This document shows, in pieces, positions 4,374 through 44,582 of a DNA stretch of 64,000 nucleotides. Source of the DNA: an uncultured Thermoleophilia bacterium. Lineage in GTDB: Bacteria; Actinomycetota; Thermoleophilia; UBA2241. The notes below the pieces were generated by a model, which was not told the DNA's origin, made no database searches, and saw only the letters and a program-made list of their open reading frames with translations. How positions within the stretch are numbered: the stretch's first letter is position 1; each line of letters begins with the position of its first letter. The position numbers were made by a program, and so were the translations under genes. The stretch lies in NCBI GenBank assembly GCA_963715985.1, contig CAVQSP010000010.1, positions 160,001 to 224,000 of the forward strand. Direction: 5' to 3'.

Positions 4374-4532
4374 GTGGAGCTCATCGTCACCTGTCTCGTC
4401 TGCGGCCAGGACGTCGATCTGGCGCGCCAGCTGGACCTGGCGCCCGAGGCGCCCTTCGGCTGTCCCTACTGCGATCCCGAGGTGGCCGAGGCCATCGGCC
4501 TGAACTTTCCCAAGGCCGACACCGCCGCCTGA
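4374..4532 (+). CDS. 52-aa zinc-ribbon microprotein (absent from ORF track)
   Basis: GAAAGGAG RBS then GTG; MELIVTCLVCGQDVDLARQLDLAPEAPFGCPYCDPEVAEAIGLNFPKADTAA. Confidence 0.75.
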   Translation: MELIVTCLVCGQDVDLARQLDLAPEAPFGCPYCDPEVAEAIGLNFPKADTAA

Positions 4533-4606
4533 GCCGGCCGGCGCAGGCGTGACCTCAGCGGCGGGCTCGCTGCCGCCGCACACACGTGCATGAGCGCGCC
4601 GTTGCC

Positions 4607-5245
4607 TCAGCCCGCGTCTTGTGCCTGCTGCCGCGCCAGCCGCTCGGCCCGCGCCTTGATACCCAGCATGCACTTGCGCATGAACGGGAGATCGCCGAGC
4701 TCCGTGGCGATCTGCTGAGGCAGCACCAGCGGGTTCGACCACCTGTACTCGTCGCGCATCCGGGTGATCAGCCGCGTGTGCGTCTCGTCGACGGCGTCGA
4801 GATACCAGAGCCAGGTGCCGGCGCGATCGCTTGCGCGCCACAGCATCCACCGCGGCTCCTCGAAGTCGTAGCACCGCATCGACGTCCAGGGGCTCATGGG
4901 GAAGGCCTTGCCGACCTCGAGGCCCTGATGCTCGGGGAGGATCTCCCAGGCACTCGGCCTGCCGCCGTTGTCCACCCAGTCGTAGCCGTACCAGCCGGCG
5001 CGGCCCCAGCCGATCTGCACGAGGAACGGCCAGATCTGCTCCGGCCGCGCCGCCACCGTGACCGCGCGAGTCGCGTTCCACTCGGGCAGCACGAACTCCT
5101 CATCGTGCGGGTAGACGCGCTGAAGCTCCTCCCGGCTGGCGCCCCAGGTCATCTGCCACGGTCTGCCCCAACGGACGTAGACCCAGATGCCTGCCGCCGC
5201 CTCGATGGCGACCGCCGCCAGAGCGATCCTGTGCAGCGTCTTCAT
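4607..5245 (-). CDS. SRPBCC-like conserved protein with N-terminal hydrophobic segment
   Basis: TRAVTVAARPEQIWPFLVQIGWGRAGWYGYD; paralog of 24494-25177. Confidence 0.75.
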   Translation of the reverse strand: MKTLHRIALAAVAIEAAAGIWVYVRWGRPWQMTWGASREELQRVYPHDEEFVLPEWNATRAVTVAARPEQIWPFLVQIGWGRAGWYGYDWVDNGGRPSAWEILPEHQGLEVGKAFPMSPWTSMRCYDFEEPRWMLWRASDRAGTWLWYLDAVDETHTRLITRMRDEYRWSNPLVLPQQIATELGDLPFMRKCMLGIKARAERLARQQAQDAG

Positions 5246-5381
5246 CGCTCCTCCTCCCCGGGATGGTCGTCACGCGCACGCCTGCCGGAGCGCGGCGACC
5301 CGCCCATGATACGCCGGGGCTGCGCTTTCGCATCGTCTTCCCCGGCGGTGCACAGATGCGCCGTGAGGGTACGATGGGCGC

Positions 5382-6038
5382 ATGTCCGCATCCCTCCAGA
5401 CGCGGTTCCGCGAGGCCCTTGTGGTGGGCAGCCTCCTGGCCCCGGAGGGCGCAGCGGCATACGACACCGCGATGCGTTGGTGGGGCTGGCCCACGGCGCA
5501 GGGCGGGAGGGACGTGGCCGGCGGCCCCCCGGGCGCGGCCGCTGAGCCGCCGATCCGCTTCATCACGCCCAAGCGCAAGCAGGCGATGCGCCCCGAGCTG
5601 CTCGGCGTGCACTTCGAGCTCGTCTTCATCAAGCCGGAGCGCATGTTCGGGGTGGAACTGCTGGGAGAGCCGGGGCTGCGCATCCGCGTCACCGACCGTG
5701 AACGCACGGTGATCGACATGCTCGACCGGAGCGACCTGTGCGGCGGCGTGCCTGCGGCCGCCGCCGCTCTTCTCGCCGCCTGGCCCGCACTTGATGTGGA
5801 GCGCCTGACGGAGCACCTCGTGCGCTTCGAGGGCGGCACGGTGCCCAGGAGGCTCGGCTATCTGGCCGAGCGCCTGGGCCTGCTGCCGCCGGACGATCCG
5901 ATGCTTCTCCGCTGGCGCGGACTCATCGGCGCCGGGTACTCCCTGCTCGAGCGCGGAGGACCCGCGACGGGCACCTACGTGCGCCGCTGGGGCCTGCGCG
6001 ACAACGTCGCCGGCCTGGCTGCGCTTCTCACGCCCTGA
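5382..6038 (+). CDS. AbiEi-like (type IV TA antitoxin-family) protein, orphan
   Basis: RVTDRERTVIDMLDRSDLCGG and RRLGYLAE resemble AbiEi C-terminal domains; no toxin adjacent. Confidence 0.65.
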   Translation: MSASLQTRFREALVVGSLLAPEGAAAYDTAMRWWGWPTAQGGRDVAGGPPGAAAEPPIRFITPKRKQAMRPELLGVHFELVFIKPERMFGVELLGEPGLRIRVTDRERTVIDMLDRSDLCGGVPAAAAALLAAWPALDVERLTEHLVRFEGGTVPRRLGYLAERLGLLPPDDPMLLRWRGLIGAGYSLLERGGPATGTYVRRWGLRDNVAGLAALLTP

Positions 6039-6167
6039 CGCCTGCTCCGATCGGGCGCCGGCTTCGCGACCACATGCGCTGCAGTGAACGACACCGGTCG
6101 CAGAGCGCCGCTCACACGGGACGGTGCTCGCCGCTTGGTGAGTCCGGCTGAGCCGCCGCCGGAGCGG

Positions 6168-6368
6168 TCAGCGGCCTCGGGACGTGCGGAGCACGATGAA
6201 CGTGCTCAGGGCCAGGGAACCGGCCGCCATGAGTCCGACCGCGACCAGTTCGAGCGGGCCGCTGCCGTCTGCCACCAGCGCGATCCCGAACAGCGCACAT
6301 GCGGCGCCGATGAGGAAGAGAAGCGGCCGGTCGCCTCGCGGCGTCGGCCGCCCGGTCCGCCGCGTCAC
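6168..6368 (-). CDS. Small two-TM membrane protein
   Basis: Two hydrophobic segments; GTGA overlap with the stop of the upstream zinc-ribbon gene. Confidence 0.6.
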   Translation of the reverse strand: MTRRTGRPTPRGDRPLLFLIGAACALFGIALVADGSGPLELVAVGLMAAGSLALSTFIVLRTSRGR

Positions 6369-6535
6369 GCCGCGCGCCCTTCGTGCTGCGTCTCCTCGTC
6401 GGTGGCGACGCGGCCGAGTCTCGTGCTGCCGCACTGCGGGCACGTGACCACGAAGCGCCGGTCTGCGCGGGCCTCCGCGGTCACGACGAACTCCTCGTCA
6501 CACTCGCTGCATACGTACACCAGCTCGGTTCCCAC
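6365..6535 (-). CDS. 56-aa zinc-ribbon microprotein (FmdB-like)
   Basis: GAAGGAG RBS; YVCSEC-x19-CPQCGS; ends EGRAA. Confidence 0.8.
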   Translation of the reverse strand: MGTELVYVCSECDEEFVVTAEARADRRFVVTCPQCGSTRLGRVATDEETQHEGRAA

Positions 6536-6568
6536 GTCGGCTCCTTCGCGTCGGTGCTCCGTGACCGT

Positions 6569-6623
6569 GTTGTACAGAGCCGGTGCTTGCCGGTCGTGAG
6601 ACCACTGTGAGACGAGCGTGAGT
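6569..6623 (-). promoter_or_regulatory. Three 11-bp-periodic (T)CTCAC direct repeats plus TACAAC -10-like element
   Basis: gtgag at 6596, 6607, 6618 on + strand; geometry matches the htrA promoter. Confidence 0.6.
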
Positions 6624-6718
6624 GCCGGGCGGGCGGATCGGGCGACGGACGGGCGCACACGTAGCTGCGCCGGTGGGCGCCCCGCAGGGGGGACGGGCGG
6701 TGGCGCCCGCCGGCGCGC

Positions 6719-6928
6719 TCAGTGGGTGGAGACTCCGGTGGCGGGCCCGTGGGCGCCGCGCTCGGTGGAGCTCGTGCCGGGAGCCGGCCCCGGCTCGTCT
6801 TCGCCGCCGTGCGGCGCCGCGGCGCGGGCTTCCGCTATGCGCAGCTCCTCGCGGCGCTCGTCCTCGGTCAGCGCCGACACGCGGGCGCTGCGCAGGTGTT
6901 CCCGGATCCTGGTGCGATGCGTCTTCAT
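6719..6928 (-). CDS. 69-aa charged hypothetical protein
   Basis: MKTHRTRIREHLRSARVSALTEDERREELRI...; near-leaderless ATG after a PHO-like promoter. Confidence 0.5.
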   Translation of the reverse strand: MKTHRTRIREHLRSARVSALTEDERREELRIAEARAAAPHGGEDEPGPAPGTSSTERGAHGPATGVSTH

Positions 6929-6937
6929 GGCGCTTAC

Positions 6938-6991
6938 ATCGTGGGCGCGGCGTGTTAGCGTTCTGTCAGCGGTCGCTGAACGTCTGGTTAC
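6938..6991 (-). promoter_or_regulatory. PHO-like direct-repeat array (GTAAC/TTCAG/CTGAC/CTAAC) plus CACGAT
   Basis: Units at 6987, 6976, 6965, 6954; hexamer 10 nt after the last unit. Confidence 0.5.
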
Positions 6992-7020
6992 GTCTCTGAG
7001 CTCACACCGAAGGAGCACCG

Positions 7021-7305
7021 ATGGGCTGTTGTCTGATCGTAGGGGTCCTCGCCGCGTCGCCGCGCATCATCCTGCTGGGCATGTGGCTGTTCACCGACTA
7101 CCTGAGCCGCATCGGGCTGCCGTTCATCTGGGGCTTCATCGGCTGGATCTTCGTGCCGTGCACGACCATCGCCTATGCCATCGCCGAGAACTCGTTCGGC
7201 GGACTGCAGGGCTGGGGCACTGTGGTGTTCGCGGCCGGCATCATCCTCGACATCCTGCTGTACGCGAGCGGGAACAGGAGCCGGCGGGAGCGCGGCTCCA
7301 CCTGA
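7021..7305 (+). CDS. Small integral membrane protein
   Basis: GAAGGAG RBS; 94 aa, three hydrophobic segments. Confidence 0.75.
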   Translation: MGCCLIVGVLAASPRIILLGMWLFTDYLSRIGLPFIWGFIGWIFVPCTTIAYAIAENSFGGLQGWGTVVFAAGIILDILLYASGNRSRRERGST

Positions 7306-7377
7306 GCTTCGGCGCGATCTGAGCAGCCGCACCTGGTGGCCGCGGCACCACGGCCACGTCCCGGCGGACCATCCGCG

Positions 7378-8676
7378 TCAGTCGATGGGAGGGACGGCAG
7401 CCGGCGGCTGAGGGATGCCGGGACCTCCGGCGAGAGCCGCCGCCGGCCGCAGCCGCCACACGTCCTTGACGAGCAGCACCCAGAAGGCGGCCACCAGACC
7501 GAGGCCGCCGGTGACCCAGCACATCGTCCCCACGCCGAACGCCTGGGCCAGTGGGCCGGCCAGCGCCAGCCCCGCCGGCCACAAGGCCATCGACGCCATC
7601 CAGTCCCAGGCCACCACTCGGCCCAATGACTCCTTGGGGATCTGCGTCTGCAGGGTCGAGTTCCACACCGCCACGAGGATGCCCACGCTGACCCCGCGCA
7701 GTCCGTAGACGACGCCCAGCACCCACGGGTCGCCGAAGATCACCATCGCCAGCGGCGCCGCCACCGCGGTGGCGCCGGTCAGCGACACGGTGATCATCGG
7801 CCGCTTGGGCCGGTAGCGCAGGGCGATGAGGGCGCCGCCGATCATGCCGGCGCTGAACACGGCCTGGAGCCATCCCCAGGCCGCCGCGCCGTAGCCCTCC
7901 TCGCGCAGCCCGAGCGGGCCGAGGATCTGGAACGGCGCGATCACGATGCACAGGACGAGGCACACGCGCAGCAGCATCACCCACAACCAGGTGCGCGACT
8001 TGACCTCGCGCCAGCCGGCGCGGAGCTCCGCGAAGAACCCCAGGACGGCCTCGGTCTTGACCACGGCCGGCACGCGCAGGGTCGCCAGAAAGGCCGCGCT
8101 GACCAGGAAGGTGACGCCGTCGACGGCGATGGCGCCGCCGGCGCCGATGAGGGCCACGAGGGTGCCGGCGATGGCCGGTCCCACCATCCAGCCGAAGTTG
8201 TCGCTCATGCCCATCAGGGCGTTGGCCTCCTGCAGTCTCGCGGCGGGCACGATCTGCGGCAGGATGGCGCCGGCCGCCGGACGGAAGAAGGCCTCCGCCG
8301 CGCCGTGAACCGCGGCGAGGGCGGCGAGCTGCCAGATCTGCGCCGTGCCGGTGAGCAGCAGCACGGCGCCGGTGATCTGCACTGCCGCGCGGATGAGGTC
8401 GCTGGCCATCATGAGCGCGGCGCGCGGCAGCCTGTCGGCCCACACGCCGCCGACCAGCGCCAGCGCTACCAGCGGCAGGCTCTGCGCGGCGAGCACCAGG
8501 CCGAGGTCGGTGCCCGAGCCGGTAAGATCGAGGACGGCGAAGGTGAGCGCCACCGGCGTGATGCCGTCGCCGAACACGGAGACGCTCTGCGCGAGAAAGA
8601 CGTTGCGGAACTCACGCCGGTGGAGCAGCCCGGCGCCCTCGCGCAGGCGTCCGGGGATGAGGCGCGAGAGACCCAT
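7378..8676 (-). CDS. MFS transporter (DHA3/macrolide-efflux-like)
   Basis: GGVWADRLPR motif A; about 12 TM segments. Confidence 0.92.
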   Translation of the reverse strand: MGLSRLIPGRLREGAGLLHRREFRNVFLAQSVSVFGDGITPVALTFAVLDLTGSGTDLGLVLAAQSLPLVALALVGGVWADRLPRAALMMASDLIRAAVQITGAVLLLTGTAQIWQLAALAAVHGAAEAFFRPAAGAILPQIVPAARLQEANALMGMSDNFGWMVGPAIAGTLVALIGAGGAIAVDGVTFLVSAAFLATLRVPAVVKTEAVLGFFAELRAGWREVKSRTWLWVMLLRVCLVLCIVIAPFQILGPLGLREEGYGAAAWGWLQAVFSAGMIGGALIALRYRPKRPMITVSLTGATAVAAPLAMVIFGDPWVLGVVYGLRGVSVGILVAVWNSTLQTQIPKESLGRVVAWDWMASMALWPAGLALAGPLAQAFGVGTMCWVTGGLGLVAAFWVLLVKDVWRLRPAAALAGGPGIPQPPAAVPPID

Positions 8677-8681
8677 GGCAT

Positions 8682-8798
8682 CGAGTCTACAAGGCGTGGG
8701 GTCCCTCGCGCCGCCGCCTGCTCTGCCTCGAGCCTCCGAGGCGGGGGTCCTGCGCGAGTCTACAAGGCGTGGGGTCCCTCGCGCCGCCGCCCTGCTCT
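8682..8798. repeat. Direct repeat of ~43 bp containing the MFS -10 element
   Basis: cgagtctacaaggcgtggggtccctcgcgccgccgcc(c)tgctct at 8682-8724 and 8755-8798. Confidence 0.85.
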
Positions 8799-9562
8799 CA
8801 GCTCGACAGCTTGGTGGCTCCCCGCGCTGCCCAGAGCGCCATGATGCCGGTCACGGTGGCGAAGCCGAACGTCACCGCGAAGCCGACGGCCAGCGACGAG
8901 CCGCTCCAGCCCACATTGATCAGCGAGCGCATCGAGTCGAACACGTAGGTGGTCGGGTTGATGGTGGCCGCCACCTTGAGCCAGCCGGCGGTGACGTACT
9001 CCTTGGGCACGAACGTGTAGCTCAGGAAGATGAGCGGGAAGAAGGCGAAGGTCGCCGCCTGGGCCGCCGCCGCGTTCTTCGTCTTCAGCGCCATGAACGC
9101 CGCGTAGCCGGCGAACGCCATGCCCCAGAGGAACGCGAGCACGACGACCAGCAGGAAGCCCACGGGGCCGGTGGCGACCTTGAGCCCCATGGCCAGGGCG
9201 AGCAGCATCACGAGGACCACCTGCGCCGTGAGGATGATGGCGCTGGCCACCATCGGACCCCAGATGACGGCGAGGCGCCGCGTGGGCGTGAGCAGCAGCT
9301 TGGTGAAGTAGCCGTTGTCGATGTCCTTGATGAGCGTCTGGCCGGCGAGGCCGGCGCCGCCGACCGCCGCGGACACGATGCTCACCGGCAGGATGAAGCC
9401 GAGGTAGGTGCCGACGAACCCCGGCAGCTGCGCCACGCTGTTCAGGCCGCTGTTGTACACGAAGAGGAAGAACACGCTGATGGCGATGTTGGGGATGATG
9501 GTCGCCGGCTGCCGCAGGGCGTTGCGCAGGGAGCGCCCGATGAGGATGACGAAGTCGTTCAT
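8798..9562 (-). CDS. ABC-2 type exporter permease (DrrB-like)
   Basis: About six TMs, NPTTY motif, coupled to the ATPase. Confidence 0.9.
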   Translation of the reverse strand: MNDFVILIGRSLRNALRQPATIIPNIAISVFFLFVYNSGLNSVAQLPGFVGTYLGFILPVSIVSAAVGGAGLAGQTLIKDIDNGYFTKLLLTPTRRLAVIWGPMVASAIILTAQVVLVMLLALAMGLKVATGPVGFLLVVVLAFLWGMAFAGYAAFMALKTKNAAAAQAATFAFFPLIFLSYTFVPKEYVTAGWLKVAATINPTTYVFDSMRSLINVGWSGSSLAVGFAVTFGFATVTGIMALWAARGATKLSS

Positions 9563-10659
9563 GACGGTGCCTCCTCGTCTGCTGGTGGAACGGGCCTGAC
9601 GCCTCCGGTGGCGTTGGGCGCGTCCTCGATGACGGCGGCGACGAACGCCGCCTCCGCCGCGGCCTTCGCGCCGCCTTCCGCGTCGCCCGCCTCGTCGACC
9701 TCGTGCTCGAGCGCCTCGCCGGTGACTCTGAGGAAGACGTCGTCGAGGCTCGGCTGTTCGATGTTCAGGCCCTGGAGCCTGATGTCTGCGCCGTCCAGGG
9801 CCCGCACCAGCTCCGGCACGTTCTCTGCCGCGCGCCCGAAGTACAGGCGCAGCTCGCGGTTGGCGGCCTGCCGGTTGGGAGCCACCGGCGCGAGCACGTC
9901 GTAGGCGCGCGCCGCGTCCTCGCAGGAGCCGAACTGCAGCTCCACGACCTCCTCGCCGACCTCGCGCTTGAGCTCCGCCGGCGTGCCCTGGGCGACGATG
10001 CGGCCCTTGTTGATGATGGCGACCTCGTCGGCCAGGCGATCGGCCTCCTCGAGGTACTGCGTGGTGAGGAAGATGGTCATGCCGAGCTCGTCGTTGAGGC
10101 GGCGCACCTCCTCCCAGATCGCCGCCCGGCTGGCCGGGTCCAGACCGGTGGTGGGCTCGTCGAGAAAGAGGATGCGGGGGTCGTGGACCAGGGCGAGCGC
10201 CAGGTCGAGGCGGCGCTTCATGCCGCCCGAGTACGAGCCCGACCGCTTGGCGGGGTCGACGTCGTCCAGTCCAACGAGGGCGAGCAGGCGTTCCGCCGTC
10301 TTCTTGCCCTCATCGCGCGGCGTGCCGAACAGCTGCGACTGCAGCAGGAGCAGCTCGCGCGCCGTCATCAGCGGGTCCAGGCCGACGTCCTGCAGCGCCA
10401 CGCCGATGGCCTTGCGCACCTTGCCGCCCTGCCGCTGCACGTCGTAGCCGGCCACGGTGGCGCGGCCGGCAGTGGGGTTCAGGATGGTGGTGAGGATCTT
10501 CACCAGGGTCGACTTGCCCGCGCCGTTCGGCCCCAGAAAGCCGAAGATGCGGCCGCCGGGGATCTCGAGGTCCACGCCGTCCACGGCGTGCAGCTTGCCG
10601 AAGTCCCGGCGCAGAGCCTGCGCGCTGATACTGCGGTCTTCGCCGTTGTGGTCGCTCAT
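9559..10659 (-). CDS. ABC exporter ATP-binding protein (DrrA-like)
   Basis: GPNGAGKST, YSGGMKRR, LFLDEPTTGLDP. Confidence 0.95.
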   Translation of the reverse strand: MSDHNGEDRSISAQALRRDFGKLHAVDGVDLEIPGGRIFGFLGPNGAGKSTLVKILTTILNPTAGRATVAGYDVQRQGGKVRKAIGVALQDVGLDPLMTARELLLLQSQLFGTPRDEGKKTAERLLALVGLDDVDPAKRSGSYSGGMKRRLDLALALVHDPRILFLDEPTTGLDPASRAAIWEEVRRLNDELGMTIFLTTQYLEEADRLADEVAIINKGRIVAQGTPAELKREVGEEVVELQFGSCEDAARAYDVLAPVAPNRQAANRELRLYFGRAAENVPELVRALDGADIRLQGLNIEQPSLDDVFLRVTGEALEHEVDEAGDAEGGAKAAAEAAFVAAVIEDAPNATGGVRPVPPADEEAPS

Positions 10660-10691
10660 CGGGGCTCCTCCATTTGCGCGCGCAACAAATT

Positions 10692-10705
10692 GTGAACGTG
10701 TTCAC
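10692..10705. promoter_or_regulatory. Palindromic operator GTGAAC-GT-GTTCAC (TetR-like)
   Basis: Inverted repeat in an AT-richer patch upstream of the ABC exporter. Confidence 0.5.
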
Positions 10706-10809
10706 GTGTTCCCCGACCGCGCGCGGGTCAATCCCGTGGCACGGTCGCCATCGGGTGATGCCCGTGGGACTGCCGGGTAGAACCCCGGCAACGATCGAGG
10801 AGGCGGACC

Positions 10810-12180: not shown

Positions 12181-12257
12181 GCCGAGCGGCCGGGAGGTCG
12201 CGGTGTGCCGGGCCGGGCGTCCGGTGGACTCCCCGCCCGCCCATCCGCCGGCCCGCG

Positions 12258-12894: not shown

Positions 12895-12945
12895 GGCAGT
12901 CGATGCTACCAGCCGGCGACCCCGCGCAGCGCCCGCGCCCGTCCA

Positions 12946-13659: not shown

Positions 13660-13662
13660 GGC

Positions 13663-32139: not shown

Positions 32140-32140
32140 G

Positions 32141-36541: not shown

Positions 36542-36571
36542 TGCGGTGAGGGCGCGGCACGCGCGCCCGGG

Positions 36572-36790
36572 TCAGACGCGTCAGCCGCCGGCCGATACCT
36601 GTACCGTGCCGTCCTCCTCCACGATGACCGGCACGATCATGCTGCCGAGGGTGAGTTCGGCGAGCTTCTCGGTGGCGCCGGGCGCGGTGGTGACGTCCAC
36701 GTCCTCGTACTCCACGCCCCGTGCGATGAGGTCGTTGCGGGCGGCGGTGCAGTACGGGCATCCGGGCTTGGTGTAGATGACGACGGACAC
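36572..36790 (-). CDS. UXX-star glutaredoxin-like selenoprotein
   Basis: IYTKPGCPYC...IVPVIVE..GG-UGA-R-V-UGA with SECIS-like hairpin GGGCGCG-CGUGC-CGCGCCC 12 nt after the first UGA. Confidence 0.85.
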
Positions 36791-36890
36791 GGACCCTCCT
36801 CTGACGGCGGCCCGGCAGGCCCGGACCTCTCCAAGTCTACAGCGGTTCCAACGCCTGCGGGCCTTCGCCGCCAGTCTCGATCGCCGCCGG

Positions 36891-39482
36891 CTAGCGCCGG
36901 AACAGCCGCAAGCCGTTGGCCGTGACCAGCAGCGACGTGCCCATGTCGGCGAACACCGCCAGCCAGAGGCTCACGAGGCCCAGAGGAGCGAGCACCAGGA
37001 AGAGCCCCTTCACGGCGATCGAGAAGACGATGTTCTGCCAGATGATGCGCTTGGTGCGGCGGCCGAGGAGGATGACGCCGGGGACGGCCGTGAGGTCGTC
37101 GCCCATGAGCGCGATGTCGGCGGTCTGAAGCGCCGCGTCGGTGCCGGCCGCTCCCATGGCGATGCCGAGCGTGGCCGTGGCGAGAGCGGGGGCGTCGTTG
37201 ACGCCGTCGCCGACCATGGCGACCGCGTCGTAGCGGTCGCGCAACTCGGCGACGGCGGCCACCTTGTCGGCGGGCAGGAGGCCGGCACTGCACGTCGTCG
37301 ATGCCGGCCTGCGCGGCGATCGGCCGCGGCCGTCTCTGCGTTGTCGCCGGTCAGCATGGTGATGTGCTCGACGCCGAGCGCGCGCAGGCGCGCGACGGCG
37401 TCGGCGGCGCCGTCGCGCAGCGGGTCGCTGACGGCGATGACGCCCAGCGCGCCGTGCTCGTCGCCGACGGCCACGGCGGTCTTGCCCTCGCGCTCGAGGC
37501 GCGAGACGGCGGCGACCAGCTCGGGGTCGGCGGCGTGCACGCCGAGCAGCTCCGGGCGCCCGGCGAAGCAGAGGCGCCCGCCGATCTCGCCGCGCACGCC
37601 CTTGCCGGGGATCGCGCGGAAGCGCTCGACCACAGGTGCGTGCGCGTGGTCCTCGCGGGACTCGTGCACGTGGTCGGCGCGGGAGCTGTGCGCCGGGCCA
37701 TCGCAGGCGCAGGCATCCGGCGCGGAGTCGTCGCAGCCGCAGCCGCGGGCGCCGCGCGCGTGCGAGCACGGCGCGTGCCAGCGGGTGCTCGCTGAGCCGC
37801 TCCAGGGCTGCGGCCACCTTCAGCACCTCGTCCTCACTCGCCCCGCCCACCGCCACGACGTCGGTGACCTGCGGCCGGCCCACGGTGAGCGTGCCGGTCT
37901 TGTCGACGGCCACCGCCCTCAGGCCGGCGGCCTGCTCGAGGAACACGCCGCCCTTGATGAGCACGCCGTTGCGCGTGGCCCGCGCCAGAGCCGCGAGGAT
38001 GCTCACCGGGGTGCTGATCACGAGCGCGCACGGGCAGCTGATGATGAGCAGCGCGAGGCCGCGATAGAACCAGGTGTCGAACGAGGCGCCGAACAGCGGC
38101 GGCACGAAGGCGACGGCCGCCGCCAGCGCCACCACCGCGGGCGTGTAGCGGGCCGCGAAGCGGTCCACGATGCTCTGGGCGGGGGCACGCTGCGCCTGCG
38201 CCTCTTCCACGAGATGGACGATCCTGGCCACGGTGTTGTCGGAGCCCACCGCCGTGGCCCGCAGCCGCAGCGTGCCGCCCTCGACGATGGAGCCGGCGAA
38301 CACCTGGTCGCCCGGGCGCCTTGGTGACCGGGCGCGACTCGCCCGTGACCTGGGACTGGTCTGCTGCCGCGTGCCCGTCGATGACGATGCCGTCCACGGC
38401 GACGCGTTGCCCGGGGCGAGCGAGCACCACGTCGCCGGGCCGCACCTCTTCCACGGGGACCGTGGTCTCCTGCCCGTCGCGCAGCACGGCGGCCTCCGGG
38501 GGCGTCAGTGCCATGAGCCCGGTGATGGCGCGACGGGTCCGCTCCAGCGTGGCGACCTGCAGCACCGTGCCGAGGCCGAAGAGGAAGGTGACGAGGCCGG
38601 CCTCCGACCACTGTCCGATGGCTGCGGCGCCGACGGCGGCCAGCGTCATGAGGACGTTCATGTCCACCTGGCGGGCGCGGAGGCTGAAGAAGGCGGCGCG
38701 GGCCACGAAGGCCCCGCCCGCGACCATCGCCGCGGCGAAGAGCCAGGGCGAGGCGGCCGGCCACACGGCCTCGGCGACGAAGCCGGCGACGATGAAGATG
38801 CCGGAGACCAAGGTGAGCGCGGCGCGCCCGTCGCTGAGCCAGAAGCCGCGCGTCGGGGCTCGCGCTGCTCGCGCGGACGGCCGCGCCGGAGCCCTGCGGG
38901 CGCGCGGCCGCCTTCTCCTGCGCGCGCTCGAGCGTGTCGTAGCCGAGCCGCCGCACCGCTGTGTAGACGCGATCGAGGTCGGTGCGCGACGGGTCGATGG
39001 CCAGGGCGAGCGTGGCGGCGCCGAAGTTGACGTCCGCCCGGCGCACGCCACGTCTCTTTGCGCAGCGCACTCTGCAGCTTGACGGCGCAGTCGGCGCAGT
39101 CCATGCCGGTGACGTGCAGGATGCGCTGCTCGCTGCCGTCCTCGCCGGGCAGCGGTATGAGCAGATCGAGTTCGCCGTGGTCGTGCACGGCGAGCGGGCA
39201 GTGGTCGCTGCAGTGAGCCTGGGCGCCCGCGCGCCGCGCGTACGTGCGCACGGCGGTCGCGTCCAGCACCCCCTCGTCGAAGTGCACGCTCAGCAGGCCG
39301 CGAGAGACGTCTGCCTCGATGGCGTGGACGCCGTCCACGCGGCCGAGCTCGCGGCTCACCTCTTCCACGCACCCTCCACACTCGGCCTCGCGCGGCAGCA
39401 GCAGGGCGAGCTCCAGGGTGTGCTCGGTGAGCGCTGCGCTTTCGGCGCCCCGCTCGCTGAGCCCGCTGCGTCGCTCAGTCAT
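36891..39482 (-). CDS. P1B heavy-metal-translocating ATPase (ZntA/CadA-like), several frameshifts
   Basis: GMDCADC HMA, TGES, CPC, DKTGT, SEHP, VGDGVND, FADMG spread over several frames. Confidence 0.88.
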
Positions 39483-39904
39483 CTGAGCTCGCCTCCCGCC
39501 GGCCTCACCCAGCCGCCGTGCCGCACGTGCTCGCGCGTGATGTCCAGCAGCACGCGGATGTGCGCGTCGTCGGGCGAGTAGAACACCATCTTGCCGTCGC
39601 GGCGGGCGCGCACGAGGCCGTTGCTGCGCAGCACGCGCAGGTGGTGACTCACGTTGGACTCGCTCATCTCCACGGCGGCGGCGAGGTCGCACACGCACAG
39701 CTCGCCGGCCTCGATGATGGCCTCCACCAGACGGCAGCGGCTCGGGTCGGCGAGGACCTTGAACAGGCCCGAGATCGCCGCGGTCTCCTCCGCGCCCGCC
39801 AGCCCCTCACGCACCGTGCGCACCCGCGCAGGGTCCACCACGGTGACATCGCAGTGGTCGAGACGTTCGGCCTCGTCCTTGCCGCAGATCACGTCGTCGG
39901 ACAT
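39479..39904 (-). CDS. ArsR/SmtB-family metalloregulator (CadC-like)
   Basis: FKVLADPSR, GELCVCDLA, VSHHLRVLR, N-terminal Cys; alternative start at 39916. Confidence 0.92.
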   Translation of the reverse strand: MSDDVICGKDEAERLDHCDVTVVDPARVRTVREGLAGAEETAAISGLFKVLADPSRCRLVEAIIEAGELCVCDLAAAVEMSESNVSHHLRVLRSNGLVRARRDGKMVFYSPDDAHIRVLLDITREHVRHGGWVRPAGGELR

Positions 39905-39920
39905 CAGGTACCCCATATCT

Positions 39921-39948
39921 GAACATATGAGCGGACATTCATATGATA
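39921..39948. promoter_or_regulatory. SmtB/CadC-type inverted-repeat operator
   Basis: CATATGA-gcggacat-TCATATG directly upstream of the arsR-ATPase operon. Confidence 0.8.
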
Positions 39949-40004
39949 CCCGTCAGCCGCCCGTGTGCCAAGTGCTGTGAGGGCCATTGGGCGGGGGGCC
40001 TGGA

Positions 40005-40200
40005 CACGGCGCCGTGGTCTCCTCGCCGGCCTCGTTCACGCGTCCGCTCGTCGTCGGCTGGAAGGTCCGGCCGTCCACCACGACCAGCTCCCCCGTCGAG
40101 GTCGTCTAATGCGCCGGCCGCGAAGTCGCCGTGCTCCCGGATCGTCTTGAGGGGGATGTGCCGGTTGTAGACGCCCTCGTCGAGGGCGCTTTCCGGCGAA
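40005..40200 (-). pseudogene. Remnant of alpha-acetolactate decarboxylase
   Basis: SALDEGVY...EHGDFAAGALDDLDG / ELVVVDGRTFQ across a frameshift; no start or C-terminus. Confidence 0.6.
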
Positions 40201-40318
40201 CGGCTGGCCCTCCGGCGGTCGCGTGGAGATCCGCCGCGAAGAAGCAAGAGGGCGGGGCGCGCCGCGAGCGCCCCGCCCTCGTCACGCCGGCCCTTGCGGG
40301 CCGCCGGTCCTGCGGCCG

Positions 40319-41530
40319 TCACATGCTGGCCGGCCGCTCCGTCAGCGTCACCTGGACGTCCTTGGTGGAGTCGCCGCTGAGGACGGTGAGCGTCAGCGTG
40401 TCGCCGGGCTTGTGCTGGTTGATGATGGCGATGAGGTCCTCCATGCCGGCGACCTGCTCGCCGTCGATGGCGGTGATCACATCGCCGCCCGCGACGTATG
40501 TCTGGCCCTGGAGCTGCGACTGCTGCGAGCCGCCCTTGAGACCGGCTTTGGCGGCCGGGCTGTCGTTGGTCACGGCTGCGATCAGCACGCCGCCGTCGAC
40601 CTTGAGACCGAGGGCGGCGGCCACGTCGGACGTGACGCTCTGACCCTGGATGCCGAGCCACGCGTAGGTCACCTTGCCGCTCGTCTTGAGCTGCTCCATC
40701 ACGCCCCTGGCCGTGTTGATGGGCACCGCGAACCCGAGGCCCTGGTTGCCGCCGGACTGTGAGGCGATCTGCTCGTTGATGCCGATGACCTCGCCGGCGG
40801 CGTTGATGAGGGGGCCGCCCGAGTTGCCTTCGTTGATGGCGGCGTCCGTCTGGATGCCGTTGGGGATCACCGAACCGTTGGGCGACTGCAGGTTGCGGTC
40901 GGTCGCCGAGACGATGCCGGACGTCACCGTGAAGTCGTACCCCAGGGGATTGCCGATGGCCACCACGGGCTCGCCCACCTGCACCGCGTCCGAGTCGGCG
41001 AGCGGCAGCGCCAACAGGGTGGGCGCCTTGGCCGGATCGACCTTGAGCAGGGCGACGTCGCTGGTCTCGTCGACACCGACGATGGTCGCCGGCACCTTGG
41101 TCGACTCCGTGCCGTCGGCGGTCTTGAACACCACGCTCACCGTGGACGCGCGCTTGCCGTCGTTCTCTACGACGTGCGCGTTGGTGAGGATGTGGCCGTC
41201 GGTGGACACGACGAAACCGGAGCCCAGACCCTGCACCGGCCCGGACGACTGGCCGAAGGGGGATTGGGTCTGGCTCGCCGGGAACGTGGAGAAGACCTCG
41301 ACGACGCCGGCCGAGTACTGCTGGTAGATCTCCGCCGGTGTGAGCCCGGTGCTCGTGCTGCTCATCGACACTGTGGACGTGGATGGAGCGCCGGCCGTCG
41401 TCGCGCGGACGACCGTCTTGGTCTCAGTCTTCACCGGCAGGACGCCGACCACCATCAAGGCAACGAGGACCAGGGCAGTCGCGGCGATGCCGGCGAGGAA
41501 CATCCACAAAGCTGACGCTGACTTGCTCAT
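40319..41530 (-). CDS. htrA: HtrA/DegP-like membrane-anchored serine protease with PDZ domain
   Basis: GSGFVV, TNAHVV, IQTDAAINEGNSGGPL, C-terminal PDZ. Confidence 0.95.
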   Translation of the reverse strand: MSKSASALWMFLAGIAATALVLVALMVVGVLPVKTETKTVVRATTAGAPSTSTVSMSSTSTGLTPAEIYQQYSAGVVEVFSTFPASQTQSPFGQSSGPVQGLGSGFVVSTDGHILTNAHVVENDGKRASTVSVVFKTADGTESTKVPATIVGVDETSDVALLKVDPAKAPTLLALPLADSDAVQVGEPVVAIGNPLGYDFTVTSGIVSATDRNLQSPNGSVIPNGIQTDAAINEGNSGGPLINAAGEVIGINEQIASQSGGNQGLGFAVPINTARGVMEQLKTSGKVTYAWLGIQGQSVTSDVAAALGLKVDGGVLIAAVTNDSPAAKAGLKGGSQQSQLQGQTYVAGGDVITAIDGEQVAGMEDLIAIINQHKPGDTLTLTVLSGDSTKDVQVTLTERPASM

Positions 41531-41566
41531 GGGGTGCCTCCCGGTGTGAGTGTGGCTTGCGTACTG

Positions 41567-41621
41567 GTTGTACGCGCCGCACCTTGGGAGAGCCTGAGCC
41601 GGAGCTGAGAAGAGGCTGAGA
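41567..41621 (-). promoter_or_regulatory. MprA-like TCTCAG-N5 array upstream of htrA plus TACAAC
   Basis: TCTCAG cctct TCTCAG ctccg GCTCAG gctct CCCAAG on the minus strand. Confidence 0.72.
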
Positions 41622-41652
41622 ATGGAGGCGAGAGCGGCGCCCAGGACCTCGA

Positions 41653-43110
41653 TCAGGGCGAAGCCGTCACGACCTCTGTCGGCGTGTCCCGGTCGTCGGT
41701 GTCACCGACCCCGAGTTGCCCCCGGTCGTTCTCGCCCCAGGTCCAGAGCGTGCCGTCCGCTTTCGCGGCGAGAGAGATGTAGTGGCCGCCGGACACGGCG
41801 ACCCAGTCAGTCTCGGTGCCGATCTGCGCCGGGGCGGTCCTGTCCTCGGTGTCGCCGACGCCGAGCTGGCCGACGCCGTTCCAGCCGAAGGACCACAGCG
41901 AGCCGTCCGTCTTGAGGGCCAGTGTGTGGTGGTCGCCGCAGGACACGGCAGCCCAGTCCTTGCCCAGGCCGACCTCAGTCGGGGTCAGGCGCTGGACGGT
42001 GTCTCCGAGACCGAGCTGGCCGTTGCCGTTGTAGCCCCACGCCAGCAGCCTGCCGCTGCTGGTGATGGCCAGGGTGGAGCCGTTGCCGCAGCTGACCGCC
42101 ACCCAGACCCTGTCATCGCCCACCCTGGCAGGGCTGAGGCGCAGCCTCGTGTCGCCCACCCCAAGCTGGCCGTTACCGTTGTACCCCCAGCCCCAGAGGC
42201 TGCCGTCCTTCTTGAGCGCCATGGCGTGGGTGGAGGCGGCGGAGACGAGCGTCCAGTCGGCGTCCCGGCCGACCTGGGTCGGAACCGTCCGCCGCGCCCC
42301 GTCGCCCACCCCGAGTTGGCCGTTGCCGTTGGCGCCCCAGGCCCAGAGCGTGCCGTTCGTCTTGACGGCGAGGGAGTAGTACCGGCCCGCGGAGACGGCC
42401 GCCCAGTCGCCGTCGCCGCCGACCTGTGTCGGGGCGCTCACCGTGACGGTGGTCTCGCCGACGCCGAGCTGGCCCTCGCCGTCGCCGCCCCATGCCCAGA
42501 GCGTGCCGTCGGTCTTGAGGGCCAGGGTGTGATCCCTGCCGGCGGACACCGCCGCCCACGCGGCATCGGTGCCGACCGCAGAGGGCGTCGCGTGCGCGTC
42601 CTTGTCGGGGGTACCGATGCCGAGCTCGCCCACATCGTTGCGGCCCCACGCCCACAACGCGTGGTCGCTCGTCAGGGCGACCATGCCTGAACCGCCGCAG
42701 GCTCCCACCGACCATCCGGCGCTCGCTGCCTGCACGTCGATGGCGAGGACGCTGCTGCGGACCTGCATTCTGCCCGCCTTGTACTGGGCCACCAGATCCC
42801 AGGTGCCGGCCTTGCCGGGCGTCACCGCGACGGTGAAGGCACCGTCGGCTGACAGTTCGGTGGTGCCGACGGCCTTCCACCGTGTGCCGGCCTGCTCGAG
42901 GATGGCGATCGAGGTGGCGCCGGCGCGGGGGTTGGTCACCGCGCCTGAGAGTGTGACGGGCGTACCCACGGTGACGGTCGTGGACGCCGTCTCCAGGCGC
43001 ACGGATGGCTTCGTCGCGGCCATCGCATCAACGGAGGGCAGGAGCACGAGGACAGCTGCGGCGAGGACGACGAGCAGCGCGTCATTGCGGCGCCTCACGG
43101 CAGCCTCCAT
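41653..43110 (-). CDS. Secreted RCC1-repeat beta-propeller protein with Ig-like N-domain
   Basis: Signal peptide; repeated LWAWG.N..GQLGVGD / WAAVSAG..HTLALKTDG units. Confidence 0.9.
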   Translation of the reverse strand: MEAAVRRRNDALLVVLAAAVLVLLPSVDAMAATKPSVRLETASTTVTVGTPVTLSGAVTNPRAGATSIAILEQAGTRWKAVGTTELSADGAFTVAVTPGKAGTWDLVAQYKAGRMQVRSSVLAIDVQAASAGWSVGACGGSGMVALTSDHALWAWGRNDVGELGIGTPDKDAHATPSAVGTDAAWAAVSAGRDHTLALKTDGTLWAWGGDGEGQLGVGETTVTVSAPTQVGGDGDWAAVSAGRYYSLAVKTNGTLWAWGANGNGQLGVGDGARRTVPTQVGRDADWTLVSAASTHAMALKKDGSLWGWGYNGNGQLGVGDTRLRLSPARVGDDRVWVAVSCGNGSTLAITSSGRLLAWGYNGNGQLGLGDTVQRLTPTEVGLGKDWAAVSCGDHHTLALKTDGSLWSFGWNGVGQLGVGDTEDRTAPAQIGTETDWVAVSGGHYISLAAKADGTLWTWGENDRGQLGVGDTDDRDTPTEVVTASP

Positions 43111-43195
43111 CTCGCCGGCGCCGCTGTGAGAGCGCGCGGATCCTGGGTCGTGCGATGCATCGGTCTCCTGCGAAGCGGGTCTCAGAACCGCGCGC

Positions 43196-43227
43196 AGAGT
43201 ACCAAGGGAGTGTGAGGAGTCCGTTAG
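43196..43227 (-). promoter_or_regulatory. PHO-like CTAAC-N6-CTCAC plus TACTCT -10
   Basis: gtgag at 43212, gttag at 43223; 10-nt spacer to the -10. Confidence 0.6.
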
Positions 43228-43282
43228 CCGGGACTCGTGCGAAGCGATGCCCACATGTCGGCTCGCCGGAGCCGCCTTCGCC

Positions 43283-43738
43283 TCAGTGCCGGTGCGGCAC
43301 GACCAGCACGGGGACGGTGCTGTGATGCAGCAGCTTGTACGACGTGGATCCGAGGAGCACTCCTCGGATCGCGCCTGAGCCGTGGCTGCCGACGACGATC
43401 AGGTCCGCGTTCCGTGCCTTGGCCACGTCGAGCAAAGCCGCGGCGGGCGCCTTGTGTTCGATCGTCGACTCGACCGGCACGCCGGCCGCGGCGATGCGTG
43501 CTGTCGCGTCGTCCAGCACGCGACTCACCGCGGCCTCCGCGGGCAGCTCCGCATCCTGAAGCTCCGGGACCATGAGCTCAGCGGCCATCGGACCGCCGCC
43601 GACTGACAGGTTCACCTCAAGCCCGTTCACCACGACGATCGTGCTGCCGGTCGCGTCGCGCGCGAGGCCGACGGCGACCTCGAGCGCCTCCTTGGCACAG
43701 TCGGACCCGTCGTAACCGAGGACGATGGTGCGCGCCAT
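43283..43738 (-). CDS. Universal stress protein
   Basis: IVLGYDGS, ADLIVVGSHG, LLGSTSYKLLHHSTVPVLVVP. Confidence 0.92.
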   Translation of the reverse strand: MARTIVLGYDGSDCAKEALEVAVGLARDATGSTIVVVNGLEVNLSVGGGPMAAELMVPELQDAELPAEAAVSRVLDDATARIAAAGVPVESTIEHKAPAAALLDVAKARNADLIVVGSHGSGAIRGVLLGSTSYKLLHHSTVPVLVVPHRH

Positions 43739-43835
43739 TGCCACTCCTCTCAGGCGTCGATCGGACACTCGATGCTCCCAGCTTCCCCGGCTTGGCGACA
43801 GCTGAGACACGCGCGGGCGCGGCCGGGCCGGCCGG

Positions 43836-43889
43836 TTCACGCGGCCCAGACGCCGCGCTCACCGGCACCTAACGGGCCGCGGGCAGACT
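43836..43889 (+). promoter_or_regulatory. PHO-like array TTCAC/CAGAC/CTCAC/CTAAC plus CAGACT
   Basis: Units at 43836, 43847, 43858, 43869; hexamer 10 nt after the last unit. Confidence 0.6.
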
Positions 43890-43897
43890 GACGGACC

Positions 43898-44227
43898 ATG
43901 ATGGCCAGGCACTTCGGGATCCGGCGGCAGGTCCGCGGCGTTCGCGCATCCGCGCTGCGGAACGACGACCGGTGGCAGATGCGGGAAGTCGGGGTCGGAC
44001 GTCTGCTCGCACGTCCCTGCGCGACTGGCCGGTTCCGCGCCATCCACGTTGCTTCTCGAGCCCCCGCTGCGCGTGGACGCAGTCTGAGGCGGACGCAGGG
44101 CCGGCCGGTGTCCCTGATGGCGCACGGCGCCGGCCGGCCCAGCACCAGATACCGCGTGGCGTCCGTGACGCGCTCCCGGAGGCAGCGCAGGCGCCCCGTC
44201 ACCCAACGAGCTACGGAGAACAGATGA
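43898..44227 (+). CDS. Possible Arg-rich 109-aa protein
   Basis: ATG 8 nt after the -10 (leaderless geometry); ATGA overlap with the next gene; no recognisable domain. Confidence 0.35.
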   Translation: MMARHFGIRRQVRGVRASALRNDDRWQMREVGVGRLLARPCATGRFRAIHVASRAPAARGRSLRRTQGRPVSLMAHGAGRPSTRYRVASVTRSRRQRRRPVTQRATENR

Positions 44228-44400
44228 CCGCACCGTTCAACCTCGTCTGTGAGGTGTGCGCCGAGGAGTTCCTCGTCGCGAACGCCGTCTACCGGGCGAA
44301 CCCCAGCATCGTCCCGTGCCCTCGCTGTGGCAGCACCGATCTCGTCCTGCTGGACACCGGCGAGGACCCGGGCTTCAGGTCCGCAGCAGCCGTGGCGTGA
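44224..44400 (+). CDS. 58-aa zinc-ribbon microprotein
   Basis: GGAG RBS; LVCEVC-x19-CPRCGS; ends SAAAVA. Confidence 0.8.
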   Translation: MTAPFNLVCEVCAEEFLVANAVYRANPSIVPCPRCGSTDLVLLDTGEDPGFRSAAAVA

Positions 44401-44582
44401 GCGCTGTGATCCAGGGGATCCACCTCATCTGTGAGGTCTGCGCCGAGGAGACGCTCATCGCGGTCCCGGCGCAGCGGACTCGATACGGCCTGGTGGAGTG
44501 TCCGCGCTGCGGGAGTGCCTACCTTGTCCTGGTGGACCCCGCCGAAGCCGGAGGGCCAAAGGCCGCTTCGGCAGTGGCCTGA
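44397..44582 (+). CDS. 61-aa zinc-ribbon microprotein (tandem paralog)
   Basis: GTGA overlap; LICEVC-x19-CPRCGS; ends AASAVA. Confidence 0.78.
   Translation: MSAVIQGIHLICEVCAEETLIAVPAQRTRYGLVECPRCGSAYLVLVDPAEAGGPKAASAVA

Follow-up and report, generated by a model that had tools for sequence, protein, structure and literature searches.

Among the genes of bacteria and archaea that lack annotation, those for small zinc-ribbon proteins are some of the most frequent, and almost none of these proteins has a known role. The described kind closest to the genes considered here is that of the FmdB-like proteins (Zn_ribbon_8, PF09723; TIGR02605, CxxC_CxxC_SSSS), which are small, carry two CxxC pairs and continue from the second of these, in the form CPxCGS, into a short strand; a full-text literature search on FmdB and zinc ribbons found no tested function for such proteins. 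The present analysis concerns four genes, encoding the zinc-ribbon microproteins P0001 to P0004, in a 64,000-nucleotide stretch of DNA (the window) from an uncultured Thermoleophilia bacterium (GenBank assembly GCA_963715985.1, contig CAVQSP010000010.1, positions 160,001 to 224,000). All four contain two CxxC pairs in a protein of about 40-100 amino acids, with 19 residues between the pairs in every case, and the locus may represent a lineage-specific set of PhoP-activated zinc-ribbon microproteins with a ClpXP-type Ala-Ala degron, a statement that, taken whole, is judged to fall slightly short of an even chance. In comparison with FmdB itself, P0002, P0003 and P0004 (family B, below) score under the curated cut-offs and lack the N-terminal MP-Y-Y/F motif of the four classic FmdB-like genes of this same genome, and the family-B side is further set apart by its Ala-Ala terminus and its PHO-box promoters.

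Natural Ala-Ala degrons, such as the ssrA tag and the C-termini of sigma-AntA and of RsdA and RseA (VAA), provide a second point of comparison. The portion available of the report on Streptomyces sigma-AntA describes a C-terminal Ala-Ala in 67 of 71 orthologues, degradation of the protein by ClpXP in vitro and its stabilisation by Asp-Asp (PMC7142297), while the available part of a study of Mycobacterium tuberculosis describes a ClpX that reads xxx-Ala-Ala degrons of anti-sigma factors, with the antepenultimate residue tuning affinity (10.1101/491043). Some of the families described below share with these substrates a free Ala-Ala conserved across orthologues, kept at a rate comparable to that given for sigma-AntA in the part of that report available (PMC7142297), and their host possesses both ClpX (637.7 bits) and a transfer-messenger RNA (tmRNA) that encodes a tag ending in ALAA (AENNSLALAA). 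They differ in their third-last residue, which is T, R, A and A in P0001 to P0004 (and T, R, A, E or Q overall) rather than L or V, and in that the tail is carried by 50-70-residue zinc ribbons from three unrelated families. A free C-terminal Ala-Ala is present in P0001 (TAA) and P0002 (RAA) and absent from P0003 and P0004 (both AVA).

The promoters of these genes invite comparison with the PHO boxes of Streptomyces, which are described, in the part of the source available, as an 11-nt direct repeat unit, GG/TTCAYYYRG/CG, present in two to eight copies near the -35 position and bound by PhoP (PMC2275107). Judged against that description, the arrays found here are similarly phased at 11 bp (two to five units), have a TCAY-like core, lie beside -35 and precede both pstS and a regulator gene; the unit here is CT[C/A/G]A[C/T], with C in place of G or T before the T. 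They differ further in being fixed 10 nt from a -10-like hexamer and in having zinc-ribbon microproteins among their targets. At least two pstS-type units in 11-bp phase are found beside -35 for P0002 and for the P0003-P0004 operon, and not for P0001.

Two further groups of small zinc proteins resemble these genes in some respects. The C(P)XCG micro-proteins of archaea (Haloferax volcanii, and Brz of Halobacterium) are portrayed, in the excerpts available, as one-domain zinc fingers of less than 70 residues, with several copies per genome and links to stress adaptation and regulation; that class is a descriptive one and not a homology family, the only sequence link to it here consists of weak matches to domains of unknown function (DUFs), and those excerpts describe neither an Ala-Ala end nor Pho control. 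With respect to its motifs, the second pair of P0002 to P0004 reads CPxCG and the first CxxC is followed by D or A, and P0001 has CLVCG and CPYCD. LysW is a zinc ribbon of about 55 residues whose flexible tail is acidic and whose C-terminus is essential for function, and weak profile matches to it exist; P0001 to P0004 lack its EDWGE end, and no LysX-type ATP-grasp gene was present among the neighbours scanned. Membership of the LysW-type carriers was rejected, the best score being 21.7 against a cut-off of 75 bits and the ends being AA or VA. The ingredients of this locus are individually familiar: FmdB-like zinc ribbons, natural degrons of the AA type and PHO-box regulons. Their combination, the sharing of one tail by three unrelated ribbon families, and Pho control of such proteins appear new, and a full-text literature search found nothing linking the Pho regulon with a zinc ribbon.

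Four microprotein genes and their families

The four open reading frames (Table 1) encode proteins of 52, 56, 58 and 61 amino acids (P0001 to P0004, respectively), with cysteine pairs CLVC/CPYC, CSEC/CPQC, CEVC/CPRC and CEVC/CPRC and with the ends KADTAA, HEGRAA, SAAAVA and AASAVA, in exact agreement with a first-pass annotation of this DNA that had been made from the letters alone. That annotation had also named three clear ribosome-binding sites and one coupled start, and these too were recovered: Shine-Dalgarno sequences (AAGGAG or GGAG) lie 5-8 nt 5' of the starts at 4374, 6535 and 44224, and the GTG start of P0004 at 44397 shares the letters GTGA with the TGA stop of P0003, in a tandem order and overlap that are also present at a second locus, L020. 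Its remark that none of the four genes had been called correctly among the listed open reading frames applied to P0002, P0003 and P0004, which were present there only as the longer frames 6365-6658, 43972-44400 and 44256-44582, and not to P0001, which was listed correctly.

Because the GC content of the window is 67-75%, open frames alone are weak evidence of coding. The four genes further display a coding-like distribution of GC by codon position (GC3 0.79-0.89, GC2 0.45-0.53), and a codon model trained on the long genes of this genome calls P0001, P0002 and P0003 as genes, with 44397-44582 (P0004) not listed separately. Against orthologous DNA, pN/pS ranges from 0.23 to 0.38 with many synonymous changes (P0001 0.23-0.38; P0003 0.25 versus L020; P0004 0.23), and the four cysteines are invariant, and their 19-residue spacing exact, in dozens to more than 100 homologues per family. 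Across the whole 4.35-Mb assembly only 10 stop-to-stop frames of at most 130 residues have that spacing, and three of them are P0001, P0002 and P0004 (P0003 sits inside a longer open frame and is absent from this list); the other seven are off-frame products rich in Arg, Ser and Cys, and all four real genes of this spacing therefore fall in one 64-kb window.

The contrary explanation, that the frames are untranslated and the conserved stretches are RNA elements or chance frames of a high-GC genome, draws on the fact that such genomes carry long open frames in all six phases, and on the public sequencing runs: 24 DNA runs, all of wetland, sediment or soil metagenomes, matched the locus (with at most 0.38 of the sampled words each), and no RNA run among them did, which also counts against the reading proposed here. 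Set against it are the correctly spaced Shine-Dalgarno sites, the codon-position GC, the low pN/pS and the invariant cysteines just described, and also a whole-window Rfam scan without a match at the gathering score. That explanation is accordingly given very little credence, and the four frames are, on the signals listed, very probably real genes that encode zinc-ribbon microproteins in an uncultured genus of Thermoleophilia. A tRNA and tmRNA scan of the window returned none.

The first-pass annotation had treated the four as one family, a grouping that did not survive sequence comparison. P0003 and P0004 are 52% identical (E 7e-18) and P0002 and P0003 39% identical (E 1e-9), whereas P0001 has no significant similarity to P0002 (E 0.036); a single family of four is ruled out on that basis, and by these alignments there are two, family A (P0001) and family B (P0002, P0003 and P0004). 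Zn_ribbon_8/FmdB is the best or a leading Pfam match of all three family-B proteins, always below its curated cut-off (29.6, 20.9 and 12.5 bits for P0002, P0003 and P0004, respectively, against 34.4), and TIGR02605 gives P0002 27.0 bits, with a second score of 16.3, both under the cut-off of 31.3. The related proteins P0006, P0016 and P0022 carry a stored PF09723 annotation, and P0002 can be regarded as a borderline FmdB member because the near-identical P0006 is annotated PF09723.16. The earlier description of the proteins as FmdB-like zinc ribbons can therefore be retained for P0002 to P0004, though under the cut-offs, and not for P0001, which has no family match in Pfam (Zn_ribbon_8 included) or NCBIfam. 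Four classic FmdB-like genes (MATYEF.C..C type) are found elsewhere in this genome, none of which ends in AA.

Twenty homologues of family A were found, nearly all of exactly 53 residues and with 19 invariant columns; in the ESM Atlas the nearest clusters to P0001 are unnamed or generic zinc-binding DUFs. A third type of zinc ribbon, family C (MSVTLVCT.CGTRLERDWIRSL...CP.C...GYVEV...), has the same 19-residue spacing and lies beside family-B genes at the loci L004, L007 and L033. A sequence search of the PDB with the family-B profile returned as its best match the archaeal RpoM ribbon (E 0.0011), followed by bL33, and nothing usable.

These families are narrowly distributed. Family B was found in 16 of 24 genomes of the same genus (E<=1e-3, a count in which some weak matches may be classic FmdB genes), in none of 16 genomes from other families of the class, and in none of the 300 further genomes searched across the phylum (E<=1e-6; no more than 21 candidates were scored in each); its profile retrieved only 98 sequences at E<=1e-3 from 1.84 billion representatives. 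Families A and C were found in two and three of the 24 same-genus genomes, respectively, family C being absent from this one, and the named records with family A are metagenome-assembled genomes of Thermoleophilia or Actinomycetota. As judged from these profiles, family B is a lineage-restricted, divergent branch of the FmdB-like zinc ribbons.

PHO-box-type promoters in the window and in the genus

The first-pass annotation had placed three of the four genes behind OmpR-type direct-repeat promoters, and such repeats proved to be real for P0002 and for P0003 and P0004 (that is, for two transcription units), where they match the architecture of the PHO boxes of pstS and phoP. The three exact units 5' of P0002 are followed by a degenerate fourth unit and by the -10-like hexamer TACAAC (6569-6574), and similar arrays, followed by TACAAG, precede orthologous and related family-B genes in other genomes. 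The box of the P0003-P0004 operon is kept at L020 (19.8 bits) and, in weaker form, at L003. The strict triple repeat occurs four times in the genome, against a mean of 0.33 in three shuffles, and only the pstS1 and P0002 copies lie 5' of a gene; with one mismatch allowed, three triple repeats are found in the window against 0.69 expected, and 3 of 100 shuffles reached three.

Further evidence was drawn from the pstS loci of the genus (25 matches in 17 of 25 genomes), among which 23 distinct promoters fit the plan unit-N6-unit-N6-unit-N10-TAGnnT. Their units are of two types, CTCAC/CTCAT as in pstS1 and CTGAC/CTAAC as in pstS2 (CTGAC-CTAAC-CTAAC; window 58011-58263 and L045-L068), and the existence of mixed cases suggests that a single regulator reads both. 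A template (units in columns 1-5, 12-16 and 23-27, then N10 and TAGnnT) was picked by eye, and a position weight matrix, trained next on 22 pstS sites of genomes other than this one, was used to scan this genome in full. With the full 43-nt matrix, ranks 1 to 4 were taken by pstS1, the promoter of the regulator gene described below, pstS2 and a PHP-domain phosphoesterase gene, and ranks 5 to 8 by the P0003-P0004 promoter, an RCC1-repeat gene, a 1002-residue gene and the 69-residue gene 5' of P0002. With the repeat units alone, the P0002 promoter ranked first, followed by pstS1, the P0003-P0004 promoter and the 1002-residue gene, and the site of the 69-residue gene (6938-6980, -) ranked eleventh; with the units plus the -10 hexamer, the P0003-P0004 promoter ranked third genome-wide. 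The family-B loci of other genomes and of metagenome contigs scored at least 14 bits, above every shuffle maximum (13.6), in 14 of 23 cases, and in nearly all of these the site stands at -86/-87 relative to the start codon; two of the 14 (L023 and L024) are near-identical contigs, and the 23 loci are what remains of 26 rows after removal of the second genes of two operons and of window 44224, the promoter of which is further away than the 250 nt covered by the scan. Family C upstream regions scored low with this matrix.

The unusual position of the P0003 promoter has a simple explanation: a 258-nt insertion, present in a single copy and only in this genome, separates the box from the gene, so that it lies about 330 nt rather than about 90 nt from the start. 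The sequences on its two sides (43701-43936 and 44195-44539) align to adjacent parts of the close relative L020, where the insertion is absent. A direct repeat within it, GGACGCAG-N8-GGACGCAG, was rejected as the P0003 promoter because it lies inside the segment missing from L020. As a separate observation on leaders, most of those in family B (L021, L023-L027, L031 and L034) read TACAAG-N4-GCATGA, and the window copy (6560-6575, -) reads TACAAC-N4-TCACGG; the GCATGA may form a mini-ORF of a start and a stop codon, or else an element of the transcription start.

The window itself contains what appears to be the corresponding regulatory system, with a PhoP-like response regulator of the OmpR/PhoB family, a PhoR-like histidine kinase and a pst-phoU cluster whose products score over the applicable profile cut-offs (PstS 378 and 364 bits, PstC 270, PstA 245-280 and PstB 370, with two PhoU domains). 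Because the promoter plan of P0002 and of P0003-P0004 is the same as that of pstS1, pstS2 and phoP, this regulator is the likely activator. Under the mechanism proposed, P0002, the small gene 5' of it and the operon of P0003 and P0004 would belong to the phosphate-starvation (Pho) regulon: the 11-bp-phased CT[C/A]AC repeats, 10 nt before the -10-like hexamer, would be bound by the PhoP-like protein, which would switch the genes on when phosphate is limiting. From promoter architecture, it is considered likely that the Pho system controls P0002 and the P0003/P0004 pair.

Several points tell against this part of the proposal. The best NCBIfam match of the regulator, PhoB TIGR02154, reaches 253.5 bits and falls under the cut-off of 296.2; the matrix ranks depend on crude gene calls and on the template chosen by eye; the P0003 box is far from its ATG in this genome; and the promoter of P0001 is under the threshold. 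A repeat promoter for P0001 is not supported, since the score of 4.4 in the window (and of at most 8.0 in orthologues) lies within the shuffle maxima, and a PHO box for that gene was rejected as scoring no better than shuffles. The family A orthologues at L013-L018 possess other elements about 20-45 nt before their start codons, namely a conserved block, ACACAAAG-TCAAC ... GTAACC-N10-GACACT, that is also in the window copy, and a GC-rich hairpin, GCCGGTGCGCCCGTGCGCCGGCC, just 5' of the ribosome-binding site, that is not.

The conserved terminus and its candidate readers

This genome has a GC content of 70% and alanine makes up 13% of its residues, and the frequency of alanine ends must be judged against that composition. 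According to a crude codon-score gene caller (also the source of the labels given to downstream genes), 90 of 4100 gene products (2.2%) end in AA, 129 (3.1%) have [AV]A as their last two residues and 17% have a final A. Family A carries [AV]A at the end of 19 of its 21 proteins (10 AA and 9 VA), the residues before it varying (RRRAAA, RWRKVA, RRQAVA, RRREVA, GDTAA), and in family C, in which a linker of 21-35 residues follows the last cysteine, 28 of 29 end in AA and the remaining one in VA. Family B is heterogeneous: of its 121 non-identical members, 39 end in AA, 10 in VA, 12 in another residue followed by A and 60 otherwise, with AA concentrated in a clade whose second pair is CPCC (33 of 45), less frequent in the remaining CPxC group that includes P0002 and P0003 (6 AA and 5 VA of 42), and absent from the group resembling P0004 (5 VA of 34). 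Among representatives at no more than 50% identity, AA is found in 17 of 25 members of the CPCC clade and in 3 of 43 others, the P0004-like group being counted among the latter.

Enrichment of AA ends thus amounts to 15- to 45-fold over background in three families, and in all three the last two positions have the lowest entropy of the final eight residues (1.27 bits against 3.1-3.6 in the CPCC clade; 0 and 0.22 against 1.8-2.9 in family C). This holds while the length of the tail ranges from 17 to 41 residues, and while positions -3 to -8 are far less conserved, the commonest residue at -3 being A in the CPCC clade (18/47), E in family C (15/29) and A in family A (12/21). In a quickly built tree of the ribbon cores, at least nine changes are needed to account for the AA state. 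The codons of the terminal alanines (GCG, GCC, GCA) and the stop codons also vary, and selection therefore acts on the residues; GC bias as the source of AA ends is ruled out by the 2.2% background, by the entropy at -1 and -2 and by these varying codons.

The first-pass annotation had offered random C-termini among homologues as a finding that would undermine it, and the termini are for the most part not random, this being so in family A, in the CPCC clade and in the orthologues of P0002, of which the clusters P0006 and P0016 also end in HEGRAA. No such conservation is seen for P0004, whose relatives end in AVI, APA, ASA or LQQ among others, or for P0003 beyond its close orthologues, among which alone AVA is kept (the ends seen being AAAVA, AAAVV and AAAPA). 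As judged from these alignments, selection maintains the Ala tail in the family of P0001, in the CPCC clade and in P0002 together with its orthologues. A further zinc microprotein with a Val-Ala end is encoded outside the window (contig C14:143257-143502, -): it is small, of a double C2H2/CxxC type (MSMQMYPCPHC...CVTCDEEF...), and ends in NVA.

In the mechanism proposed here, each protein consists of a zinc-ribbon core under purifying selection and a variable tail rich in Gly, Pro, Asp and Glu, of which only the last two residues are kept in most lineages, as Ala-Ala or sometimes Val-Ala, and the terminal Ala-Ala would be an ssrA-like C-terminal degron read by ClpXP; if so, it is proposed, the microprotein would be present only while PhoP drives its transcription. 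The gene for ClpP, which adjoins clpX outside the window (contig C14:423587-424157), is matched by its model as two segments that do not share a frame (positions 3-113 and 105-192 of the model), and this may reflect a frameshift or an assembly error. By analogy with the degrons described above, the assignment of the tail as a proteolytic signal is tentative and stands somewhat below even. Several facts weigh on the other side: P0003 and P0004 end in Val-Ala and not Ala-Ala, the tail of P0004 is not conserved and AA is found in none of the 34 P0004-like proteins, and 60 of the 121 members of family B end in a residue other than A. In an E. coli tag screen, moreover, the part of the report available describes terminal Ala-Ala as necessary and not sufficient, tags with Gly or Ser upstream as weak, and Pro, His, Gly and short polar residues as disfavoured in the third-last position (PMC10862746). 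With T, R, A, E or Q third-last and acidic residues upstream, the tails found here may act as weak, tunable ClpX degrons, or the terminus may have a different reader.

One such different use would make the Ala-Ala a docking or attachment point for a partner, in small carrier or adaptor proteins like LysW, ThiS/MoaD or Pup, or, in a variant, a tail that hands a bound target to an unfoldase in trans. The combination of ribbon, variable acidic linker and near-invariant terminus in three unrelated families would fit such a role, as would the side-by-side arrangement of AA-tailed ribbons of different families at L004, L007 and L033 and the acidic residues before AA (EEAA, EQAA, REAA), which are unlike strong E. 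coli ClpX tags; LysW-type proteins are moreover weak relatives, the NCBIfam model carrier_LysW_Arch matching P0004 at E 1.6e-4 and the family-B profile matching P0134, which ends in EDYGE, at E 6.4e-4. The LysW score is nevertheless far under its cut-off and the terminal residue here is Ala, whereas LysW uses Glu. The neighbours examined (Usp, RCC1-repeat, MFS, small unknown proteins and the AbiEi-like gene) include no ATP-grasp or other ligase, and no partner has been identified, so that a carrier or docking role is held to be unlikely. A bolder form of the variant, in which at least three unrelated ribbon families of this lineage have converged on a CxxC-x19-CPxC handle, a disordered acidic linker of free length and an AA end as phosphate-starvation-switched degron adaptors acting in trans, must be rated as distinctly improbable.

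About as unlikely as the carrier role is a more mundane account, under which these are ordinary, stable FmdB-like zinc ribbons whose Ala ends are a by-product of Ala-rich, low-complexity tails in a high-GC genome and of shared descent, and whose repeats are bound by an OmpR-family regulator unrelated to phosphate. The composition of the genome and the frequency of A ends in it are in keeping with this account, as are the freely varying tails of the P0004-like proteins, the half of family B without a final A, the tails that close orthologues have in common by descent and the score of the response regulator under the PhoB cut-off. It is difficult to reconcile with the excess of AA over background in three families, with the conservation of -1 and -2 above -3 to -8 across tails of such different length, with the retention of AA in the majority of the divergent CPCC representatives or with the synonymous variation at the terminal Ala codons; the repeat plan, furthermore, precedes both pstS genes, phoP and the PHP phosphoesterase gene, and little else in the genome. 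Of the overall interpretation given in the first-pass annotation, a set of short-lived zinc-binding regulators or adaptors behind repeat promoters, what stands is the genes, the FmdB likeness of three of them, the repeat promoters and the Ala tail; what falls is the single family, a repeat promoter for P0001, the P0004 tail and the AVA of P0003 beyond close orthologues.

Neighbouring genes and implications

Genes adjoining the microprotein genes, together with the Pho genes and promoter features of the window, are collected in Table 1. Family A is always followed (at six of six loci) by a homologue of the 218-residue gene, which matches only the C-terminal part of AbiEi antitoxin/regulator models (PADLOC, E 4.3e-31) and has no AbiEii-type toxin gene adjoining it; in this genome alone, a 212-residue gene lies between P0001 and that gene. 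On the family-B side, the N-terminal 35-48 residues of the 69-residue product match those of P0058 and P0091 with 56-57% identity (E 1e-8 and 3e-9), proteins of other organisms in which that segment is fused to a family-B ribbon, and the fusion suggests that the 69-residue product and the ribbon work together. Across the genus, copies of the predicted 94-residue membrane protein share 87-94% identity at five of six loci, the figure for L014 being 67%. Genes resembling P0003 and P0004 are adjacent in L020 (with the same overlap), in L002 (divergent) and in L009 (convergent), and not in L003, L005 or L011. The family C genes are convergent to family-B genes about 100-130 bp away, at the three loci where they occur together, so that AA-tailed ribbon families are physically clustered. 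Many of the top PHO-box sites cluster at 41-59 kb of the window, which looks like a Pho-regulon island. Also encoded there are two Usp proteins, an Nramp transporter, a NapC/NirT cytochrome and a HAD hydrolase.

Table 1. Positions of the microprotein genes, promoter features and neighbouring genes in the window
Feature	Position	Strand	Details
P0001, zinc ribbon of family A	4374-4532	+	52 aa, ends DTAA; AAGGAG 7 nt 5' of start
212-aa gene, no known family	4607-5245	-	
218-aa gene, AbiEi-like	5382-6038	+	
P0002, FmdB-like zinc ribbon	6365-6535	-	56 aa, ends EGRAA
PHO-box array 5' of P0002	6596-6622	-	three exact CTCAC units, 11-bp phase
69-aa gene directly 5' of P0002	6719-6928	-	same strand as P0002; neighbours family B in L004, L006, L007, L010
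94-aa predicted membrane protein, no known family	7021-7305	+	adjoins 69-aa gene and family-B ribbon in several genomes
Secreted-looking RCC1-repeat/Big_3_5 protein	41653-43254	-	PHO-box-like site 43196-43238
PHO-box-type promoter of P0003-P0004 operon	43847-43889	+	CTCAC-N6-CTAAC-N10-CAGACT
Insertion in P0003 leader	43937-44194	+	258 nt; contains the direct repeat
P0003, FmdB-like zinc ribbon	44224-44400	+	58 aa, ends AAAVA
P0004, paralogue of P0003	44397-44582	+	61 aa, ends ASAVA
129-aa gene accompanying family B	45130-45519		
1002-aa gene, no Pfam match	50175-53183	+	directly 5' of phoP-like gene; PHO-box-like site 50040-50082
OmpR/PhoB-family response regulator, PhoP-like	53233-53940	+	Response_reg and Trans_reg_C; own PHO box 53158-53200
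Histidine kinase, PhoR-like	53944-55740	+	HAMP-PAS-HisKA-HATPase
PHO box of pstS1	56510-56552	+	CTCAC-N6-CTCAT-N6-CTCAC-N10-TAGCCT
pstS1, pstS2, pstC, pstA, pstB, phoU	56627-62825	+	

For proteins of this kind, PHO-box promoters indistinguishable from those of pstS provide a regulatory handle, and would place the microproteins behind them in the phosphate-starvation response. That three unrelated families retain a terminal Ala-Ala on otherwise drifting tails suggests that one reader recognises the C-terminus in all of them, with ClpXP as the simplest candidate. Were the tail a docking or carrier site instead, the finding would be newer still, and were the ribbons adaptors, each would bind a target of its own and deliver it, by way of the shared tail, to ClpXP or to some other unfoldase that reads AA, in a gene-encoded, non-covalent counterpart of ssrA or Pup tagging for which the fusion of the 69-residue gene to family-B ribbons would mark one such target or partner. 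If, as tentatively preferred here, the tail is a degron of the microproteins themselves, sigma-AntA, the one actinobacterial precedent for a regulator with a natural AA tail, would be joined by a class of microproteins, and the AA tail would serve as a simple sequence signature by which short-lived regulators might be recognized in genomes.

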